In this document: positions 4,393-14,303 of the stretch, in pieces
Numbering within the stretch: the stretch's first letter is position 1
Layout: each line of letters starts with the position of its first letter
Assembly: GCA_016871575.1 (NCBI GenBank)
Contig: VHCW01000016.1
Location: 133 to 64,132, forward strand
Origin: Verrucomicrobiota bacterium
GTDB taxonomy: Bacteria; Verrucomicrobiota; Verrucomicrobiia; Palsa-1439
Direction: 5' to 3'
Length of the DNA: 64,000 nt
Made by a program: the position numbers and the translations under genes
The notes under the pieces: model-generated
Told to the model about the DNA's origin: nothing
The model's input: only the letters and a program-made list of their open reading frames with translations
The model's database searches: none

Positions 4393-5294
4393 ATCTCGTT
4401 GGCAGTGAAGAGGGCTTTGGCAAAACTTTTCGGGTCGAATGGTTGAAGGTCGTCCACTTGTTCGCCGAGGCCGATGAATTTTACCGGAATCTTTAGTTCG
4501 CGCGCGATGGCAACGACGATGCCGCCCTTGGCGGTGCCGTCAAGTTTGGTGACGATGAGGCCGGTGATGCCGAGGGTGTTGTGGAACTCGCGCGCTTGAT
4601 GGAGCGCGTTGGTGCCGGTGGTGCCGTCGAGCACCAATAACACTTCATGCGGCGCATCGGGAAGACGTTTGTGGAGCACGCGCCGCATCTTCTTCATTTC
4701 CTCCATCAGGTTCGCCTTTGTGTGAAGGCGACCGGCGGTGTCAATGAGCAGGTAATCGGCATTGCGTTTGATGGCGGCTTCGAGCGCGTCGAATGCAATG
4801 GCCGCGCTGTCGGCTCCGTACTGCCCGTCAATGATGTCGCAACCGACGCGGCCGGCCCAGATTTTGAGTTGTTCGATGGCGGCGGCGCGGAACGTGTCGC
4901 ACGCGGCGAGAAGGACGGTGTGCCCCTGTGATTTCAGCCAGTGCGCGAGTTTGGCGGTGGAAGTGGTTTTGCCGGTGCCATTGACGCCGGCAAGGAGGAT
5001 GACGGTGGGAGAGGCAGGAGGTCGCGGCGCTAAGGCCGCTCCCACATTGGACAATTCGCGTTCGATTTCGGTGCGGGCGATGGCGAAGACATCGGGAGAA
5101 CCGGTTTCCTTGACGCGGGCGACGATGTCGGTGGCGGTGCCGATGCCGATGTCGCTGGCGACCAGCGCGGCTTCGAGTTCGTCAAGCGCATCGGCGTCGA
5201 GGCGCGGGGAACGGGTGATGATGCGTTTGATCTCGGTGGCGAGCTTGGTCGAGGTCTTTTTCAGGCCATCACGGAATTTCTGGAAGAGGTTCAT
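4377..5294 (-). CDS. ftsY: Signal recognition particle receptor FtsY
   Basis: SRP GTPase motifs GVNGTGKTT, DTAGR, TKLDG; NG-domain over the full length. Confidence 0.9.
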   Translation of the reverse strand: MNLFQKFRDGLKKTSTKLATEIKRIITRSPRLDADALDELEAALVASDIGIGTATDIVARVKETGSPDVFAIARTEIERELSNVGAALAPRPPASPTVILLAGVNGTGKTTSTAKLAHWLKSQGHTVLLAACDTFRAAAIEQLKIWAGRVGCDIIDGQYGADSAAIAFDALEAAIKRNADYLLIDTAGRLHTKANLMEEMKKMRRVLHKRLPDAPHEVLLVLDGTTGTNALHQAREFHNTLGITGLIVTKLDGTAKGGIVVAIARELKIPVKFIGLGEQVDDLQPFDPKSFAKALFTANEIQESP

Positions 5295-6082
5295 TTCAGT
5301 TTTTCGACGAGTTCGTACGGGATGCGGACGGCGCCGACGCCGGCATCGTGGGCGTCACTGCCGCCGGTCGGGTGGAGGCCGAGTGAGGCGGCGAGTTGTT
5401 GGCAGTGCCTCGTTTGGGCGGGATTGTGTGCGGGGTGCCATGTCTCGATGCCGCGGAGTCCTTGGTCGCGCATGTCACGGATGTCAATGTCGGTGATGGC
5501 AGAGAGGCCGGGATGCGCGAGCACGGGAACGCCGCCGGAGGAGTTGATGTGGTGGATTCCCTCGGCAGCCGTCACCCGGTGACGCTCGACATGGGCGGGT
5601 TTGCCGGGGCGGAGGAAACGGGCGAATGCTTCTTCCACGTTGCGGACGAAACCACGCGCGAGCAGGGCGCGGGCAACGTGCAGGCGGCCGAGGGAAGCGC
5701 TGCTGGCGCAGTGTTGCACGTCGGCAACCGTCAGGTCGAGTCCGAGCGCATTGAGTCGTTCCACGATTTGAACGATGCGCTTGGCGCGGACGTCGCGGGC
5801 AAACTGGAGAACACGGGCGAAGGCAGCATCGCGCCAGTTGTTGTGGAGGTAGTAGCCGAGAAGATGGACTTCGTGTTGACAGACGTGGCAGGTGAGTTCG
5901 ACGCCGGGGATGACCTCGATGCCGTTGGCGACGGCGAGCGCCGGGGCGATGCCGTCAAACGTGTCGTGGTCGGTGATGGCGATGGCGGCGAGGCCGTTTG
6001 TTTTCGCAGCGCGGACAAGATCGGCTGGTGAAAGTGTCCCATCCGAGCAGGCGCTGTGGATGTGCAGGTCGGCGAACTTCAT
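5291..6082 (-). CDS. PHP-domain metal-dependent phosphoesterase (TrpH/YciV family)
   Basis: N-terminal DLHIHSACSDG ... ITDHDT PHP motifs. Stop overlaps the ftsY start (ATGA). Confidence 0.8.
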   Translation of the reverse strand: MKFADLHIHSACSDGTLSPADLVRAAKTNGLAAIAITDHDTFDGIAPALAVANGIEVIPGVELTCHVCQHEVHLLGYYLHNNWRDAAFARVLQFARDVRAKRIVQIVERLNALGLDLTVADVQHCASSASLGRLHVARALLARGFVRNVEEAFARFLRPGKPAHVERHRVTAAEGIHHINSSGGVPVLAHPGLSAITDIDIRDMRDQGLRGIETWHPAHNPAQTRHCQQLAASLGLHPTGGSDAHDAGVGAVRIPYELVEKLK

Positions 6083-6994: not shown

Positions 6995-8212
6995 TCAGAG
7001 TGTGTGTCCCATTTTTTTCTTTTTCGTTTCGAGGTACTTGACGTTGTGCGCTGTGGGTGTGATGCGGATGGGGAGTTGTTCGGTGATTTTCAGGCCAAAC
7101 CCCTCGAGGCCGACAATTTTTCTCGGATTGTTTGTCAGCAGGCGGATGCTGCGGAGACCGAGGTCGGCGAGAATCTGCGCGCCGAGGCCGTATTCGCGGA
7201 GGTCGGGTTTGAAGCCGAGTTTCTCATTGGCCTCGACGGTGTCGAGTCCGGTTTCTTGCAGCGCGTAGGCGTGCATCTTGTTGGCGAAACCGATGCCGCG
7301 CCCTTCCTGCCGCATATAGACGAGAACGCCGGCGCCCTCGGCGGCAATGCGCCGAAGGGCCTCGTGAAGTTGATGGCCGCAGTCGCAACGCTGGGAGCCA
7401 AAGACGTCACCGGTGAGGCATTCGCTGTGGACGCGGACGAGCACGTTTTCCTTGCCGCGCAACTTCCCCATCACAAGCGCGCAGTGATGCTGATTGTCCA
7501 CGAGCGAGCGATACAGATGAAGGCGGAACTCGCCGTGCTCGGTGGGCATGGCCACTTCCTGCTCGCGCACGATGAGGCGTTCGCGTTGGCGGCGGTATTC
7601 GATGAGGTCGCGGATGGTGCAGAGCTTGAGGCCGTGGGTCTGCTTGTAGTTCAACAGTTCCGGCAACCGGGCCATGCTGCCGTCCTCATTCAGGATCTCG
7701 CAGATGACTCCGACAGCGTAGAGTCCCGCCATGCGGATGAGGTCCACGCATGCTTCGGTGTGTCCGGCGCGACAGAGCACGCCGCCTTCGCGGGCTTGCA
7801 GCGGAAAAATGTGGCCGGGAGAAACGAGTTCCTCGGACGCGGCGTGCGGGTCGGCCAGAATGCGAATGGTGCGGGCGCGGTCGTAGGCGCTGATGCCGGT
7901 GGTGATGCCAGTGCGGGCGTCCACGCTGACAGTGAAGGCGGTGCGGTAGGAGTCGCGGTTCTCGCGGACCATCGGCTCGATGTTGAGCGCCTGGAGACGG
8001 CGCTCGGTGGTCGGCACGCAAATCAGCCCGCGGCCATGTTTGGCCATAAAATTGACGGCATCCGGCGTGGCTTTTTCGGCGGCCATGACGAGGTCGCCTT
8101 CATTTTCGCGGTCTTCGTCATCGGTCACAATGATCATTCGACCCTGCCGGATTTCTTCCACGCAGGATTCAATCGAGTCAAAGGCGGATGGATTGTCTGG
8201 GCGTTTGCTCAT
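6995..8212 (-). CDS. ribBA: Bifunctional 3,4-dihydroxy-2-butanone-4-phosphate synthase / GTP cyclohydrolase II
   Basis: [22 protein letters not shown] (DHBP synthase) and C-terminal GTP cyclohydrolase II region (CxCGHQL). Start chosen at MSKRPD. Confidence 0.9.
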
Positions 8213-8559
8213 CAAGGGCGTGACAGTAGCAGGAACGGCAACACAGTGCAAACCCGTTTGGTGATCCCGTTGGTGAACGGATTTCGTTTCAAGGGCATCG
8301 CCTTCGTCTCTTGAACTCCGTCAAACTTGAATGGAAGGGCACGTTTCTAGTAACGCACGCAGTCCCGTGTCGTTTCGGGACGGAGTGCGAATCGTTTGGA
8401 CGGAACGATCTCGCGCAACCCCACTTCGCTTCGCTGCGTGGCTCACTACGAACTACCCTTTGGATGTGGTTTGATGGAGCACGCTCGCCGGTATTCTGGT
8501 CTTGCCTTGTCACCGCGATAGACGGTATTCTGAGCACACAAACAAACAGGAGGCATTCC

Positions 8560-9363
8560 ATGAAATGTCAGGTTTCTGCTGCTGTTCGCGGTATGTTGTT
8601 GTTGGTCGTGTTTGCCGTTGCGGTGAGTTGTGGGAAATCGCAATCTTCCGGCAGTCCCACTGCGCAAGGCAATCTCGCCGTGGACCTCGGCGGCGGGGTG
8701 ACGATGGACTTCGTGCTCATCCGTCCCGGCAACTTCACGATGGGGTCGGACAAGGGAAGCAGCGACGAAAAGCCGGCGCGCAAGGTGACAATCACCAAAC
8801 CGTTTTATCTCGGCAAGTTTGAGGTCACGCAGGAGCAGTGGCAGGCCGTGATGGGCAGCAATCCCAGCAACTTCAAGGGCGCGAAGAATCCGGTTGACAC
8901 TGTAAATTGGGAGGATTGCCTGACGTTCGTGCGGAAACTGGGCGAGAAAGTGCCGGGGTACACGTTCCGGTTGCCGACGGAAGCGGAATGGGAATACGCC
9001 TGCCGCGCCGGCAGCAGCAGCGAGTATTGCTATGGCGATGATACCGGTGGGTTGGGCGACTACGCTTGGTACAGCAATAACTCCGGCAGCAAGACGCATA
9101 CGGTCGGTGAGAAAAAACCGAATACGTGGGGACTCTATGACATGCACGGTAACGTCTATGAATGGTGTCAGGATTGGTATGGAAACTATTCCACCAACGC
9201 GGAGACCGATCCGGTCGGGCCGTCTTCCGGGTCGAACCGTGTGTTGCGCGGCGGTTCATGGAGCCGCAATGCCTCGACTTGCCGGTCGGCAATCCGTTAC
9301 AACTTCAACCCGTCGAATCGCTTCTACATCTACGGGTTGCGGGTTGTGGTGGTCGTGCGCTGA
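8560..9363 (+). CDS. DGR target (variable) protein: lipoprotein with an FGE-sulfatase / C-type-lectin-fold domain; VR at the C-terminus
   Basis: RBS AGGAGG 6 nt upstream of the 8560 ATG. Lipobox AVSC/G. FGE-sulfatase hallmarks ([47 protein letters not shown]). The last ~45 codons are the VR. Confidence 0.85.
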   Translation: MKCQVSAAVRGMLLLVVFAVAVSCGKSQSSGSPTAQGNLAVDLGGGVTMDFVLIRPGNFTMGSDKGSSDEKPARKVTITKPFYLGKFEVTQEQWQAVMGSNPSNFKGAKNPVDTVNWEDCLTFVRKLGEKVPGYTFRLPTEAEWEYACRAGSSSEYCYGDDTGGLGDYAWYSNNSGSKTHTVGEKKPNTWGLYDMHGNVYEWCQDWYGNYSTNAETDPVGPSSGSNRVLRGGSWSRNASTCRSAIRYNFNPSNRFYIYGLRVVVVVR

Positions 9364-9369
9364 GGGCTT
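9227..9369 (+). repeat. DGR variable repeat (VR), 143 bp, ending 6 nt past the target stop codon
   Basis: Gap-free alignment to 10938-11080. Within the 143-bp body, 13 of 14 substitutions lie at positions that are A in the other copy; one is G/T (9297/11008). There is one further G/C difference at the 3' boundary (9365/11076). Mismatched sites map onto AAC/AAT codons of the other copy. Confidence 0.85.
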
Positions 9370-9393
9370 AATTACAATTTAGATTTTTACCTC

Positions 9394-9412
9394 CGCCGCG
9401 CGAAGCGCGGCG
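9394..9412 (+). promoter_or_regulatory. GC-rich hairpin (CGCCGCGC-GAA-GCGCGGCG) 25 bp downstream of the VR; position matches the stem-loop required for DGR retrohoming in characterized systems
   Basis: 8-bp perfect stem read from sequence. A similar hairpin (GCCGCGCC-AACG-GGCGCGGC) occurs at 11163-11182 downstream of the TR. Confidence 0.5.
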
Positions 9413-9517
9413 CCGGCTGCAAAATTTATGAAAGCAACCACAAAGCGGGAGCAAGCTCCCGCACTCCATATTTGGAGTGCGGCGACTCGTCGCCGCTTTG
9501 CCGTTCTCTGACCGCAA

Positions 9518-9859
9518 ATGATGACCGCTCATCGTCCGCCAATCTATACGAAGTATTACGATCTACTGGGGTGGCTGCTGGATCGCACGGCGAAGTTTCC
9601 GAAGAACATGCGGTTCGGGCTGGTGCAGAAGATCGAAACCATCGCGTTGCGTCTGCTGGAGCAGTTCATCGAGGCGATTTACCGCAAAGACCGCGCCGCG
9701 CTCTACCTGCCGGTGAACCTCGACTTGGAAAAGCTGCGTGTCTTTCTGCGGCTGAGCCACGACCGCGGCGTCCTCAGCGCCGACCAACTGCGCTTTGCGA
9801 TTGGCGAGATTGATGAAATCGGTCGGATGTGGCACGGCTGGGTGAAACCAAAGCCGTGA
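9518..9859 (+). CDS. avd: DGR accessory variability determinant (Avd; four-helix-bundle / 23S rRNA IVS protein family)
   Basis: 113 aa, basic, helical. YTKYYDLLGWLLDRTAKFPKNMRFGLVQKIETIALRLLEQFIEA parallels the Bordetella phage bAvd pattern. Sits immediately upstream of the RT and overlaps it. Confidence 0.8.
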   Translation: MMTAHRPPIYTKYYDLLGWLLDRTAKFPKNMRFGLVQKIETIALRLLEQFIEAIYRKDRAALYLPVNLDLEKLRVFLRLSHDRGVLSADQLRFAIGEIDEIGRMWHGWVKPKP

Positions 9860-10908
9860 AACGCTTCGGCAACCTCTACGATGCGATTTGCTCTTGGGAT
9901 AACTTGGAACTGGCCGCCCGCCGCGCCCGGAAACGGAAACGTTACCGGTGGTACGCTGAGGACTTCGAGTTGCGCCGCGAGTCGGTGCTGCGCGAGATTT
10001 ACAACGAACTGATTGAGCAACGCTGGCAACCCGCGCCCTACGAAACCTTCCGCATCTACGATCCGAAGGAGCGCCTGATCTGCGCCGCGCCGTACCGCGA
10101 CCGTATCGTTCATCACGCTGTCTGCAACATCGTTGCACCGCTCTTGGAACGCAGTTTCATCGCCCACAGTTACGCCTGTCGCCTCGGCAAAGGCACGGGC
10201 GCGGCGCGGGCGCACTGCCGGCAGTTGGTGAAACAGTACCCATACGCGCTGAAAGCGGACGTGACGAAATACTTCGCCTCGATTGACCACGCGCTCTTGA
10301 AAACGAAGCTGCGCCGCCATCTCAAGTGCGCGCCGACGCTGGCGTTGCTCGACCGCATCATTGATTCGTGGCAAACGACCGACGAACCGCCCGCGTGGTT
10401 TGCGGGCGACGATCTATTGACGCCGCTGGCGCGTCCGCGCGGCCTGCCGATTGGCGCGTTGACGAGCCAGTTGTTCGCCAACCTGTATCTGAGCCGTATT
10501 GATCATCTCGTCGAGGAACAACTCCAACCCGGTGGCTACGCGCGGTACACGGATGACTTGGTGCTGTTCGCCGACTCGAAGCGGTTCCTATGGGATGCGC
10601 TCGACCGGCTCCGGGCGGAGTTCGCAGCGGAACGGTTGCAAGCGCATCCGGTCAAGTGTCAGGTGCTGGCCTGTCGGGACGGTGTGCCGTTCCTCGGCTT
10701 CCGGTTCGGCCCGGATTGGACGCGCGTGTTGCCGGAGAACGTGCGCCGTTTCCACCGCCGGATGGCAGCGTTGCGGCGTGCGGTTCGGGCGGAACGAAGA
10801 CGGTTGGCTGAGGCGTGGCCGACGATGTTCAGGTGGTTTCAGTTCGTCCGCGAACAACCCGGCAACGACGGACTGGTGCTGGCCGAATGCCAGCGCCAAG
10901 TGTTTTGA
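9856..10908 (+). CDS. DGR reverse transcriptase
   Basis: RT motifs including the DGR-specific LPIGALTSQ ([I/L]GxxxSQ replacing the QGxxxSP of group II/retron RTs) and YTDDLV (YxDD). N-terminus KRFGNLYDAICSWDNL resembles bRT. Start proposed at GTG 9856 overlapping the avd stop (GTGA); the six-frame ORF opens at 9829. Confidence 0.88.
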   Translation: MKRFGNLYDAICSWDNLELAARRARKRKRYRWYAEDFELRRESVLREIYNELIEQRWQPAPYETFRIYDPKERLICAAPYRDRIVHHAVCNIVAPLLERSFIAHSYACRLGKGTGAARAHCRQLVKQYPYALKADVTKYFASIDHALLKTKLRRHLKCAPTLALLDRIIDSWQTTDEPPAWFAGDDLLTPLARPRGLPIGALTSQLFANLYLSRIDHLVEEQLQPGGYARYTDDLVLFADSKRFLWDALDRLRAEFAAERLQAHPVKCQVLACRDGVPFLGFRFGPDWTRVLPENVRRFHRRMAALRRAVRAERRRLAEAWPTMFRWFQFVREQPGNDGLVLAECQRQVF

Positions 10909-10937
10909 GATCGAGACGTAAGGGGGCTGGCCCGCGA

Positions 10938-11080
10938 CCGGGTCGAACCGTGTGTTGCGCGGCGGTTCATGGAACAACAATGCCACGAATTGCCGGTCGG
11001 CAAACCGGAACAACAACAACCCGTCGAATCGCAACAACAACTACGGGTTGCGGGTTGTGGTGGTCGTGCGCTGAGCGCTT
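10938..11080 (+). repeat. DGR template repeat (TR), 143 bp, 30 bp downstream of the RT stop
   Basis: Contains 12 AAC/AAT codons in the VR reading frame (e.g. aac-aac-aat, aac-cgg-aac-aac-aac-aac, aac-aac-aac-tac) that are the mismatched sites. Confidence 0.85.
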
Positions 11081-11249
11081 TCCTTCCGGAGGAGAGATTG
11101 GCCGCGTTCATCAGGACGCGGTCACCGTTCCAATGGAAAGCCCAGGGCCGGTCTCCCGCGCCGCCGCGCCAACGGGCGCGGCGAGCCAAACACGCGGCAC
11201 CGGGGCGGGGCTGGTAGCCAGACCAACAGGCGAAAGCCCCGCTCCGTTG

Positions 11250-11304
11250 TGAGACTTAGACTGTGAGACTTAGACTTGCGATGATTGTCGAGGAAGGGTA
11301 GAAT
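11250..11304 (+). promoter_or_regulatory. Putative vapBC promoter/operator: tandem direct repeat TGAGACTTAGACT x2 abutting -35 TTGCGA, 17-nt spacer, -10 TAGAAT
   Basis: Read directly: 11250-11276 repeats, 11276-11281 TTGCGA, 11299-11304 TAGAAT, RBS GAAGGTG at 11311-11317. Confidence 0.4.
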
Positions 11305-11322
11305 GACCACGAAGGTGAAACT

Positions 11323-11538
11323 ATGACGTATCGCGGTCACGTGAAATCTGGTCAGGTGGTATTGGATGAACCGACGCGGTTGCCGGAAGGCGCCGAGGTG
11401 TCGGTCGAGGTGGCTTCGTCGGCCGGGGTGTCATCCTTGGGGCAAACACTGCTCCAGTACGCCGGTCAGGCGCGGGATTTGCCTGCCGATGCCGCTCGCA
11501 ACCACGATCACTACTTGTACGGGACACCGCGCCAATGA
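11323..11538 (+). CDS. vapB: Type II antitoxin (VapB-like, AbrB/SpoVT-type small DNA-binding protein)
   Basis: 71 aa. Stop overlaps the start of the downstream PIN-domain gene (ATGA at 11535). Confidence 0.6.
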   Translation: MTYRGHVKSGQVVLDEPTRLPEGAEVSVEVASSAGVSSLGQTLLQYAGQARDLPADAARNHDHYLYGTPRQ

Positions 11539-11936
11539 GCCGGGTGTTTGCCGACACGTCGTACTATTTGGCGCTGCTCAATTCCCGCGATGAGTTCCAT
11601 TCCATTGCTTGCCAACAAACCGGTGCCTTGAACGGTCGGATTGTGACCACCGCTTGGGTAATCACGGAACTGGGCAACTTCATGGCGAAGGGAGCCAATC
11701 GCCGTTTGTTTCTGGCATTGTTGGCCGCGCTGCGCGACGATGATCGCGTGACCATTGTGCCGCCCACGACTGAACTGTTGGAGGATGCGCTGGCGCTGTA
11801 CGCTCGCCGCGCGGATAAGGATTGGTCGGTCACGGATTGTGTTTCGTTTGTGGTGATGGAGGAACACGGGTTGAAGGAAGCTCTCACTGCCGATCATCAC
11901 TTTGCACAAGCGGGTTTTCACACGTTGCTTCTCTGA
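11535..11936 (+). CDS. vapC: PIN-domain toxin, VapC family
   Basis: N-terminal FADTSYYLALLNSRDEFH (PIN acidic residue), later acidic residues; ~133 aa, typical VapC size. Confidence 0.8.
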   Translation: MSRVFADTSYYLALLNSRDEFHSIACQQTGALNGRIVTTAWVITELGNFMAKGANRRLFLALLAALRDDDRVTIVPPTTELLEDALALYARRADKDWSVTDCVSFVVMEEHGLKEALTADHHFAQAGFHTLLL

Positions 11937-12043
11937 GAACGTTTCCGGACACGCTCTGAGATCACCCTGTCGGCATCGCCCGTTCCCTTCCTGTCGGTTG
12001 CAGCGTCTGTTCTCTTGCGCTCGCCGCGGCGCGCTGGTAATGT

Positions 12044-12454
12044 TTGGACATGCCACGACGCGCCAGTTCGAAACTTCATCCTTCATGGTTTATCGCCGTC
12101 GCCTTGCTGGCGGCGGCAGCCATTGCCGGTGGGTACTTTCTGATGTCGAAGGTCAACGACCCGTACCGCACGATCAACGCGCTCGACGTGCTGACCTACC
12201 TCGAAAACGCCAACAGCCTTCGCGGGAACATCTACCGCGTCAACGGCACCGTCTGGAACTCGCTCGGCTGGTCCCCGTCCGTGGGACGCCTCTTCGCCGT
12301 CGAGGCCGGCGCCGGCAAACCGGGCGACCTGGTGCCGTTGCTCGTGCCGTCGGCGCTCAACCACGTCAATCTGCAGAAGGGCCAGCGGTTCGTCTTCGAG
12401 GTCGAAGTCGTCGAAGGCGGCGTCCTGCAGGTCAAGAGCCTGCGCAAGGAGTGA
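12044..12454 (+). CDS. Hypothetical membrane-anchored protein
   Basis: N-terminal TM helix WFIAVALLAAAAIAGGYFL; high GC3; 2-nt gap to the next gene. Confidence 0.5.
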   Translation: MDMPRRASSKLHPSWFIAVALLAAAAIAGGYFLMSKVNDPYRTINALDVLTYLENANSLRGNIYRVNGTVWNSLGWSPSVGRLFAVEAGAGKPGDLVPLLVPSALNHVNLQKGQRFVFEVEVVEGGVLQVKSLRKE

Positions 12455-12455
12455 C

Positions 12456-14303
12456 ATGATGAAACGTTTCCTGTGTTGTCTGCTGGCGATAAGCGCGATG
12501 CCGGTGTTCGCGCAGAAACCCGACGAGCCGGCGAGGGGCGGGGCGACGAGCACCACCATCATCACGCCGCCGAAGTCGCCCAGCACCGCGCCGAGCGTGC
12601 CGCTGGGCGAGGAAGTGCCGATGTACGATCCCGGCTCGGAAGTGATTTCGTGGGGCGGCAAACACTGGAACATTGCGAATCAGCGCGTCTTTCAGGCGCG
12701 CTTCGAGAAGTACCTCAACGCCCCGGAGCAAACGGACGCTGACAACGTCGAGTACCAAAAGACCATTCGCGAGATTCTCGATCTGCTTTCGCCGCGCACC
12801 GCGACCAACGTCAAGCTGTATCAGGCTTACGTGCTGTTGTTCCGGGCCGTCGTGCACGATGCTGATGGCGGCGTGTGCAATGCCATTGCCAATGCCGTCG
12901 CCACCGCGTGGCAGGCGCAGATGAACCAGAACCAATTGGCATTGACAGTGGGGGAGTTGAAGAAGGCCATGCAGGCCGAACAATCCAAGGCCATCATGTT
13001 CGCCGGACATCAGGAACAGCAGTCCTCCAAGCAGTCCGCCGGCAAGAAAGGTAGCAGCACCGTGCCGGCGCCCGTCGTTTCCCCGAACGAAATGCGACAG
13101 GGTTTCTACCTGAAAGAAGCGGCTGCGTTTGAGGCCCAGATGGCCGCGCTCACGGCCAAGCGGGAGGTTTCCGCGTTGCAGGCGCGCGTCCAGTTTCAGG
13201 CGTTGATGCTCCAGCTTTTCCTCCAGCGCCGGTTTCAGCATGTCGTGATGTCCTGCCACATGTACCGCCAACTTTTCAACGAGGGCGATTCCTCCATCAA
13301 AGTCGAGGGACAGACCAAGGAATTCTTTACCAAGGACCTTGGGATGCCGCCGACGGTCAGCACGTTGTTGTCATTGGCCAGTGAAGCGATGCGGGATGTC
13401 CGTGAAGGCGTTCAGGCTTATCTTTTCCTGTCCGACCGCAACGAAATGGACAGCGCCACGAAGCGCCTCAGCGAGTCGTTCCTTGTGGGCGAATACATGC
13501 CGGAAATACGGACGCTGTCGCGCGACAAGAAGCGGCTCGCGTTGACCTACAGCCAGAAAGCCAACCGGCTCGTGAGCGCGCTCAGCGTCAAGGATTACAC
13601 CCAGGCCGAACAACTGATCAAGGAAATGGAAGCCATGGCCAAGGACTTTGACTCGACCAAGCCGCGCGCCGCCGTCGAGACGGCCAAGACCGTCAGCGCC
13701 ATGCACCTTGCGAAGGCCCGCAACGCGGCCATTGCCGGCAAATCGCAGGCCGTCGAGGACGAACTCAAGCAGGCCGCCGCCGTCTGGCCGCGCAATCCGT
13801 CACTCCTGGAAATGTCCGGCGCCATCTTCGGCCAGAGCGACCTCCAGCAAAAAGCCGTTGCCGATTTCGAACAGCTTCTCAGCCAGGGCAATCTCCGTCA
13901 GATATTCAACGACAAGCTCCGGTTCATTGCCGCGATGGCCAGCAATCCTGACGGACAGGAGAAATTGAAGAAGGTCCTCGAAGACATGCAGACCATCGAG
14001 GCCGCGGTTGCCCGCGCCCAGGAATTTGCCCGCCGCGGCGATCCCGCCGGCGCGTGGGAATCCGTCGAGCGCGCCGCAAAGCAGTTTCCCGACGATGTGA
14101 AGTTGAACCAGCTTCGCGGCAACTACAGCAGCGAGGCCGCCAGTTTCGTCGAAAGCCTGCGCACCGCGCAACGATTGGAGACGCAAGGCCAAACCGGCTC
14201 CGGCCTGGCATGGTATCTCAAGGCGCAGCGCCACTATCCGCTCAGCGATTTTGCCAAGGAAGGCATCGAGCGGCTTGCCAGAAAAATCCTGCCCTCGTCC
14301 TGA
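12456..14303 (+). CDS. Hypothetical exported protein (615 aa; signal peptide, Pro/Ser-rich linker, Ala/Gln/Lys-rich helical repeats)
   Basis: Signal MMKRFLCCLLAISAMPVFA. No recognizable catalytic motif. Confidence 0.6.
   Translation: MMKRFLCCLLAISAMPVFAQKPDEPARGGATSTTIITPPKSPSTAPSVPLGEEVPMYDPGSEVISWGGKHWNIANQRVFQARFEKYLNAPEQTDADNVEYQKTIREILDLLSPRTATNVKLYQAYVLLFRAVVHDADGGVCNAIANAVATAWQAQMNQNQLALTVGELKKAMQAEQSKAIMFAGHQEQQSSKQSAGKKGSSTVPAPVVSPNEMRQGFYLKEAAAFEAQMAALTAKREVSALQARVQFQALMLQLFLQRRFQHVVMSCHMYRQLFNEGDSSIKVEGQTKEFFTKDLGMPPTVSTLLSLASEAMRDVREGVQAYLFLSDRNEMDSATKRLSESFLVGEYMPEIRTLSRDKKRLALTYSQKANRLVSALSVKDYTQAEQLIKEMEAMAKDFDSTKPRAAVETAKTVSAMHLAKARNAAIAGKSQAVEDELKQAAAVWPRNPSLLEMSGAIFGQSDLQQKAVADFEQLLSQGNLRQIFNDKLRFIAAMASNPDGQEKLKKVLEDMQTIEAAVARAQEFARRGDPAGAWESVERAAKQFPDDVKLNQLRGNYSSEAASFVESLRTAQRLETQGQTGSGLAWYLKAQRHYPLSDFAKEGIERLARKILPSS

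Follow-up and report, generated by a model that had tools for sequence, protein, structure and literature searches.

Similar stems, probably by chance: a candidate target-site hairpin and a template-side RNA helix in a chromosomal diversity-generating retroelement of Verrucomicrobiota

Introduction

The window analyzed here, a 64-kb stretch of contig VHCW01000016.1 from a Verrucomicrobiota bacterium, contains a complete chromosomal diversity-generating retroelement (DGR), which lies on the + strand at positions 8560-11250 in the order target gene with its variable repeat (VR), avd, reverse transcriptase (RT) gene and template repeat (TR). Two GC-rich hairpins with almost the same stem, named A and C in the following, are found downstream of the VR and of the TR, respectively, and a first-pass annotation proposed that chance would not produce a stem shared by the two repeats, which could reflect requirements of the RNA or DNA structure of the element. 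The question raised by this locus is, then, whether the shared stem means anything. The comparison with related loci described below makes it quite probable that hairpin A is a DGR target-site hairpin, that hairpin C is a helix of the DGR RNA and that the likeness of their stems is due to chance. How the cDNA of a DGR locates its target and takes its place has yet to be explained (PMC12875486), and the target hairpin is among the few cis elements known to matter.

The features involved are the following:

9227-9369, + strand: VR, including an invariant 3′-end resembling the initiation of mutagenic homing (IMH) site; the stop codon of the target gene is at 9361-9363.
9394-9412, + strand: hairpin A, CGCCGCGC-GAA-GCGCGGCG, with a perfect 8-bp all-GC stem and a 3-nt loop; putative DNA-level target-site hairpin or cruciform element.
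10938-11080, + strand: TR, with 11071-11083 at its 3′-end predicted to serve as the template strand of a template:primer duplex.
11160-11186, + strand: hairpin C, an RNA stem-loop adjoining the Stop duplex described below, with a perfect core at 11162-11183 and a bulged A11184.

The sequences and coordinates of the two hairpins had been read correctly (9394-9412 for A, 11163-11182 for C), and so had their distances, which agree with repeat ends at 9369 and 11080: hairpin A begins at the 25th base past the VR, so that 24 nt separate the end of the VR/TR homology from the stem, and hairpin C at the 83rd base past the TR. As first noted, hairpin C is GCCGCGCC-AACG-GGCGCGGC; longer forms are a 9-bp perfect stem, CGCCGCGCC-AACG-GGCGCGGCG, at 11162-11183, and an 11-bp stem with the bulge at 11160-11186.

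Related Loci

RT homologs amounted to 1535, the closest named ones belonging to metagenome-assembled genomes (MAGs) of Verrucomicrobia, Lentisphaerae, Kiritimatiellia and Planctomycetes. A metagenome scan with RT alignment gathered 80 loci with 41-91% RT identity, a range indicating that they are not mis-assembled copies of one sequence; closer relatives were added by exact-protein look-ups. TR/VR pairs were found by a diagonal scan for repeats with mismatches at the adenines of one copy, which gave 50 clean pairs. Among the loci cited by number, RT identities to the window are 91% for L005, 87% for L085, 71-73% for L006 and L088 and about 62% for L092-L098. A contig scan with a single RT protein returned only four loci, all distant (24-42% identity), in none of which a TR/VR pair could be detected.

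The Hairpin Downstream of the Variable Repeat

A hairpin is retained at the position of hairpin A in about 40 related DGR loci. It is identical to that of the window, at the same offset, in L005 and L085; L006 and L088 have CCAGCACCGC-GTCA-GCGGTGCTGG in its place, and the stems and loops of L092-L098 are CCGCCGCGC-GCA, CCGCCGC-GAA, GGCCGCGC-GCA, GCCGCCGC-GAA and CCGCGC-GTA. Pairing is retained while the stem sequence varies, through compensatory changes among the related DGRs, and the loop type is also kept: a sense-strand G-N-A triloop on a perfect stem of 5 bp or more was found in 24 of 50 VR-downstream regions, compared with one of 50 on the antisense strand, one of 45 TR-downstream regions (first 110 nt) and 16 of 2000 random windows (0.8%) of the same loci. 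GAA is the most frequent triloop in the clade (13), followed by GCA (6), GTA (3) and GGA (3). The 24 distinct A-type stems comprise 180 Watson-Crick pairs, one G-T pair and nine G.A mismatches, and in the two-target DGRs L052 and L055 the A stem differs between the two targets while the loop type is the same.

Target-site hairpins of DGRs have GC-rich stems of 7-10 bp, located 4-34 bp from the VR; in BPP-1 it is the structure of the stem that matters, not its sequence, while the loop is sequence-specific and its 4-nt GRNA sequence is critical (Guo et al. 2011, PMC3240598). A catalogue also exists of the GC-rich inverted repeats found downstream of the DGR IMH (Wu et al. 2018, PMC5758913). Hairpin A resembles the BPP-1 target hairpin in being an 8-bp GC-rich inverted repeat of the sense strand, within the 4-34 bp range at 24 nt, in the freedom of its stem sequence as long as pairing is kept, and in the retention of a loop type with G first and A last. 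The hairpin of the BPP-1 mtd target, GCGGGGCC-GAAA-GGCCCCGC, lies immediately past the stop codon.

These similarities, together with the conservation of the element, support the identification of hairpin A as a conserved target-site hairpin or cruciform element, and its placement at the site of DGR target hairpins in the first-pass annotation is upheld by the position, compensatory stems and loop type kept in homologous loci. Hairpin A is also present in the minimum-energy fold and is the dominant predicted structure of its region.

A number of points weigh against this identification. The folding energy of hairpin A is weakly distinguished from that of shuffled sequences (z = -0.97 over 77 nt and -1.96 over 31 nt), and its loop is a 3-nt GAA closed by a C-G pair, not the 4-nt GRNA loop of BPP-1; the GRNA tetraloop, however, is the mark of a phage-type DGR subgroup, and the class defined by Wu et al. 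(PMC5758913) is broader. The low count of G-T pairs in the A stems is partly biased, as the hairpin finder penalized such pairs. The sense-strand specificity of the loop is equally compatible with a role at the mRNA level, and the function itself is attributed to hairpin A by analogy with BPP-1 and Legionella.

It could also be argued that both hairpins are functionless GC-rich palindromes generated by chance in a window of 60.8% GC with many CGCCGCGC-type words, an idea with which the weak shuffle scores of hairpin A would agree. This is, however, scarcely credible, since position, loop type and pairing are kept through sequence change in dozens of loci, and perfect hairpins with 8 or more base pairs and a 3-7 nt loop number only 18 in the 64-kb window. 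The DGR accounts for three of these; three of the 18 have all-GC stems, two of them being A and C.

A different role for hairpin A, as an intrinsic terminator or 3′-end stabilizer of the target mRNA rather than a retrohoming signal, was considered for DGRs by Wu et al. (2018, PMC5758913), who found terminators after a minority of DGR targets only. Like a rho-independent terminator, hairpin A is a GC-rich stem-loop found where a gene ends, its loop is sense-strand specific as in an RNA element, and some relatives have a T-run after the A-type stem, within 0-2 nt in nine of 27 related loci and within 12 nt in 12 of 27. However, none of the close relatives of the window (L005, L085 and L092-L097) has a T-run at 0-2 nt, although all keep the hairpin; in the window itself no U-tract follows (the next bases are CCGGCTGCAAAATTT), and a terminator scan called neither A nor C, whose tails are CCGGCTGCAAAA and AGCCAAACAC, respectively, without a U-tract. 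In addition, the A stems are nearly free of G-T pairs, compared with 9-15% of G-U pairs in the RNA helices C and D of this element, and a terminator at this position would cut off avd and the RT gene, if the genes are co-transcribed. A main role in termination or mRNA stability is therefore unlikely, and the target-site function remains the preferred reading for hairpin A.

The stretch that separates the VR from hairpin A is also distinctive:

9370-9393, + strand: G-poor spacer, AATTACAATTTAGATTTTTACCTC, ending in TTTTTACC.

The corresponding spacers of the relatives are 17-63 nt long and, on the sense strand, on average 74% pyrimidine and 9% G; in 21 of 27 spacers the final 25 nt contain TTT[AGT]C, a TTTAC-like motif, as compared to 10% of controls. 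This property is seen in L006, L018, L020, L023, L028, L038, L074, L092-L098 and others. The target sites of this RT clade differ from that of BPP-1 in the G-poor, pyrimidine-rich spacer, with its TTTAC-like motif, that precedes the hairpin and, in some distant members, in stems with G.A mismatches. Such stems, in which tandem G.A/A.G mismatches flank a GAA or GCA loop, are found in the target hairpins of L013, L044, L052, L072 and L079, examples from distant relatives being GCGAGCGAGC-GAA-GCGAGCGAGC and TCCGAGC-GCA-GCGAGGA; the tandem mismatches would pair on the sense strand only. A literature search on pyrimidine tracts or triloops at DGR targets found nothing relevant among the papers covered.

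In DNA, mini-hairpins of the d(GCGAAGC) type, reportedly the subject of work by Hirao and colleagues, have a C-GNA-G triloop with a sheared G.A pair; this is a physico-chemical motif and not a biological family. The center of hairpin A is GCGAAGC and the loops of its relatives are C-GAA-G, C-GCA-G, C-GTA-G and C-GGA-G, a likeness suggesting that the top-strand DNA form of hairpin A may be unusually stable.

The Structured RNA Downstream of the Template Repeat

Three hairpins, B, C and D, lie past the TR, and the offset of B from the TR equals that of hairpin A from the VR; none of the three has a G-N-A triloop, and they behave as RNA helices. The elements recognized around the TR, besides hairpin C, are listed here:

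10922-10933, + strand: 5′ strand of the Stop duplex, GGGGGCUGGCCC, closely preceding the TR; pairs with 11145-11156 (ΔG -26 kcal/mol).
11099-11124, + strand: hairpin B, an 11-bp stem with an AUCA tetraloop, just past the TR; analog of the Avd-binding stem-loop.
11135-11145, + strand: predicted primer strand, GGAAAGCCCAG, pairing with the 3′-end of the TR at 11071-11083.
11145-11156, + strand: 3′ strand of the Stop duplex, GGGCCGGUCUCC.
11187-11193, + strand: A-rich unpaired strand, CAAACAC, after hairpin C; CCAAAUAC or CCGAAUAC in relatives.
11199-11248, + strand: hairpin D, a long stem-loop interrupted by an interior loop (GGGGCUGGUA...GAA); analog of the RT-binding stem-loop.
11135-11252, + strand: match of the covariance model, covering the 3′ half of the DGR RNA.

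Hairpin B had been missing from the first-pass annotation.

The clade keeps about 190 nt past the TR, in which single-stranded motifs are invariant and stems variable. RNAalifold on 13 sequences predicted 51 pairs, 30 of which show compensatory changes; the 51 include the ten pairs of hairpin B, most of them changed on both sides, and the 11 pairs of the template:primer duplex (11071-11083 with 11135-11145), found in all 13 sequences. Both elements also appear in the minimum-energy fold. A Stop duplex of 12-13 bp, with compensatory changes, is present in nine of nine clade loci at -16 to -3 from the TR start.

The covariance model of the 3′ half, R1, has one match per locus in 30 loci, always on the RT strand and downstream of both RT and TR, and a single match of 79.3 bits in the 64-kb window. 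In the alignment of the 30 sequences 90.9% of the cells are paired, compared with 63.6% after shuffling and at most 48.6% with slid partners, and the covariation score is 0.683 as compared to 0.221 for shuffled data. All seven modelled pairs of hairpin C are changed on both sides, one of them, for example, being CG in ten sequences, AU in eight and UA in eight; in hairpin D this holds for 17 of 18 pairs, and the motif GGGCTGGTA is present in distant loci too. G-U pairs make up 9-15% of helices C and D (8.7% in hairpin C), a share in keeping with RNA and in contrast to hairpin A. Folding of 11066-11252 as a single sequence gave the same architecture as the comparative model (z = -3.98), and hairpin C is present in the minimum-energy folds. 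In the first of these, AACACGCGG (11189-11197) was paired with CCGUGUGUU in the 5′ region of the TR; the comparative model prefers a 4-bp helix J with 11156-11159, which may enclose hairpin C and the A-rich strand.

Two considerations temper this model: the template:primer duplex is mostly invariant, so that covariation supports it weakly, and the R1 alignment was fitted to the structure of the model itself. On the sequence evidence as a whole, hairpin C is a covariation-supported helix of a structured RNA of about 180 nt, as modelled downstream of the TR. With its strong covariation and its G-U pairs, C is read as an element different from A.

Rfam, searched at a permissive E-value over 8000-12500, contained no DGR-related family matching this region. 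A match of CRISPR-DR29 on hairpin C was below threshold (21 bits, gathering cutoff 39) and was judged to be chance, as probably is a match of V_AS9 (Vibrio RNA AS9) to the upstream coding region at 8007-8090 (32.3 bits, gathering cutoff 50; E = 0.0066).

The Stem Common to Hairpins A and C

The words that make up the stem of hairpin A are frequent in the window, with 20 copies of CGCCGCGC and 30 of GCGCGGCG. In 8% of unrelated TR-downstream regions, and in 15.5% of dinucleotide shuffles of the region past the TR of the window, a word of 8 or more bases is shared with hairpin A; with composition controlled, such a match thus turns up once in 6 to 12 cases. Moreover, the A and C stems are unrelated in the relatives: L092 has CCGCCGCGC and UCCCCGC, L093 CCGCCGC and UUUGCC, L095 CCGCCGC and UCCGAU, L096 GGCCGCGC and UUCCGC, and L098 CCGCGC and UUCCGGC. 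In L005 and L085 hairpin C carries a compensatory switch from C-G to U-A, with further changes in L085, while hairpin A is unchanged; in L052 and L055 a single TR goes with two different A stems.

Since the stems are unrelated in the relatives, C drifts with A fixed and a match is common in controls, the resemblance is best explained, as far as the sequences can tell, as the chance likeness of two stems that are both all-GC, in a genome rich in CpG. This part of the first-pass annotation, i.e., a stem shared beyond chance or for a common requirement, is not sustained by the relatives and the control frequencies.

The opposite reading would have the shared stem be functional, RNA stem-loop C being matched to DNA hairpin A for docking of the ribonucleoprotein on the target, either by pairing of the RNA arms with the opened DNA arms or through one protein surface, e.g., Avd, that reads both stems. 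The two stems agree at eight of eight positions in the window and for 7 nt in L005 and L085, so that these three loci keep A and C stems 7-8 nt alike, which counts against coincidence. Over 39 loci, the shared words within a locus average 6.38, compared with 5.94 for permuted pairings (P = 0.003); the excess, however, largely vanishes against dinucleotide shuffles (6.13, P = 0.07, not significant). In L044, an outlier, the 11-mer TTGTCCTGAGC is common to the 5′ arm of the VR hairpin and to the Stop-strand segment of the TR-downstream RNA, as in none of 200 shuffles, and would be a further instance of such docking if docking were true. The frequency of the window match among shuffles, the unrelated stems of L092, L093, L095, L096 and L098, the change of C without A in L005 and L085, the two A stems per TR in L052 and L055 and the freely swappable stem sequence of BPP-1 (Guo et al. 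2011, PMC3240598) all argue against it, and a functional match between the stems appears very improbable. A narrower version, confined to the sub-lineage of the window (with L005, L085 and, weakly, L006), takes the near-identity of A and C as a device that would couple the ribonucleoprotein to the recipient site, the arms of stem-loop C, or a protein holding it, recognizing the same stem in the target DNA; it is given just as little credence. Chance therefore stays the preferred account of the common stem.

Two other origins of the resemblance were discarded. Duplication of a flank common to VR and TR does not account for it, as the offsets of A and C differ (24 and 82 nt), the flanks cannot be aligned past 9369 and 11080, and it is B, not C, that is found at the offset equivalent to that of A. 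Co-variation of A and C, prompted by the presence of GCGGTG in both hairpins of L006, was ruled out by the wider clade and by the permutation and shuffle tests.

Comparison with BPP-1 and Proposed Role

The BPP-1 DGR RNA, made up of the 3′-end of avd, the TR and the spacer Sp, has been studied by cryo-EM (Handa et al., bioRxiv 10.1101/2023.10.23.563531). It contains a template:primer duplex between the 3′-end of the TR and the spacer Sp, with an Avd-binding, 11-bp tetraloop stem-loop inside the span of this duplex, and a Stop duplex of TR-upstream sequence with the spacer, followed by a short stem-loop; the adenosines past the latter make A-minor contacts, and a single-stranded “thumb ring” and a long RT-binding stem-loop come next. 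Such elements were predicted in 207 of 278 Avd-containing DGRs (same reference). The RNA of the window shows the same order, i.e., template:primer duplex, hairpin B, Stop duplex, hairpin C with the A-rich strand, and hairpin D. Hairpin B is therefore a likely analog of the Avd-binding stem-loop, while hairpin C can be regarded as the counterpart of the Stop-adjacent stem-loop by analogy of architecture only. There are differences too: the TR of the window is downstream of the RT gene, whereas that of BPP-1 lies between avd and RT, and the Stop-adjacent stem-loop has 7-11 bp here, compared with 2 bp and a UNCG loop in BPP-1. Against a closer relationship, model R1 found no sequence-level similarity in the BPP-1 DGR region, where its best hit (E = 1.1) was not at Sp; the correspondence is accordingly one of architecture, and no homology is claimed.

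The loci compared provide the structures, with their conservation and covariation, and show A and C to be independent; to this the scheme that follows adds protein binding, priming and an effect on homing by analogy. Hairpin A, a GC-rich inverted repeat beyond the VR/TR homology, would fold as a sense-strand hairpin or as a cruciform and, as in BPP-1, raise the efficiency with which the VR is replaced by adenine-mutagenized cDNA, possibly by marking the recipient copy or by keeping the 3′-end of the VR accessible. On the template side, the RNA would be arranged as a duplex of the TR 3′-end with GGAAAGCCCAG around hairpin B, followed by the Stop duplex, hairpin C, the A-rich strand and hairpin D; this structure may serve to recruit RT-Avd and to prime cDNA synthesis near 11070, which it would then halt upstream of the TR.

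Both A and C would then belong to kinds of elements that are already known, the lineage-specific details being the triloop, the spacer and the G.A-mismatch stems of the distant relatives. The window and about 40 relatives form a large chromosomal DGR clade (Verrucomicrobia, Lentisphaerae, Kiritimatiellia and Planctomycetes MAGs where named) with a distinct form of hairpin: a sense-strand G-N-A triloop closed by C-G, on a near-pure Watson-Crick stem, preceded by a G-poor, pyrimidine-rich spacer. The architecture of the BPP-1 RNA appears to hold also with the TR downstream of the RT gene, and the loci provide a comparative data set for mutant design. The result is mainly a clean annotation, whose clade-level details may be of interest to DGR specialists and are not surprising.

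Genes, Repeats and Neighboring Features

The protein-coding genes of the retroelement are the following:

8560-9363, + strand: target gene, coding 267 aa with a hydrophobic, signal-like N-terminus and an FGE-sulfatase domain (C-type-lectin fold; Pfam PF03781, E = 2.4e-50); the VR is at its 3′-end.
9518-9859, + strand: avd (accessory variability determinant; Pfam bAvd PF22296, E = 2.1e-19).
9829-10908, + strand: DGR RT (Pfam RVT_1, E = 9e-19).

The VR (9227-9369) and the TR (10938-11080) align with an offset of 1711 and 15 differences, 13 at TR adenines and two elsewhere; the 24-mer at 9341-9364, in the invariant 3′-end of the repeat, has two copies in 64 kb, one in the VR and one in the TR. 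An RT gene adjoining a TR/VR pair with adenine-biased differences (13/15), a VR at the 3′-end of a C-type-lectin/FGE-sulfatase target and an Avd gene are the hallmarks of a DGR. One of the differences not involving adenine is close to the end of the repeat, where the VR has G9365 (GAGGGCT) and the TR C11076 (GAGCGCT), and is kept in 11 of 11 clade members. The position is located 3′ of the predicted cDNA start (about 11070), within the predicted template:primer duplex, in which the TR C is bulged; its location and its conservation are in keeping with a difference that copying never transfers to the VR.

Between hairpin A and the start of avd, positions 9436-9505 form an imperfect inverted repeat with 33-nt arms, 73% complementary, which holds three perfect sub-hairpins (9445-9462, 9459-9482 and 9479-9496). 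It has a single copy in the window and is absent from the sister loci L005 and L085, in which the ATG of avd is about 17 nt past hairpin A; it looks like a small inserted palindromic element.

The DGR targets of L088, L092, L093, L094 and L096 are large fusions of a Ser/Thr-kinase with FGE-sulfatase, and the target of the window is short (267 aa). Directly after the DGR RNA, the window contains at 11323-11936 a 71-aa open reading frame, with no Pfam match, overlapping a PIN-domain gene (E = 1.3e-12); L093 has the same arrangement after its DGR, an 81-aa open reading frame and a PIN gene at 4963-5612, and the two genes look like a VapBC-type toxin-antitoxin pair.

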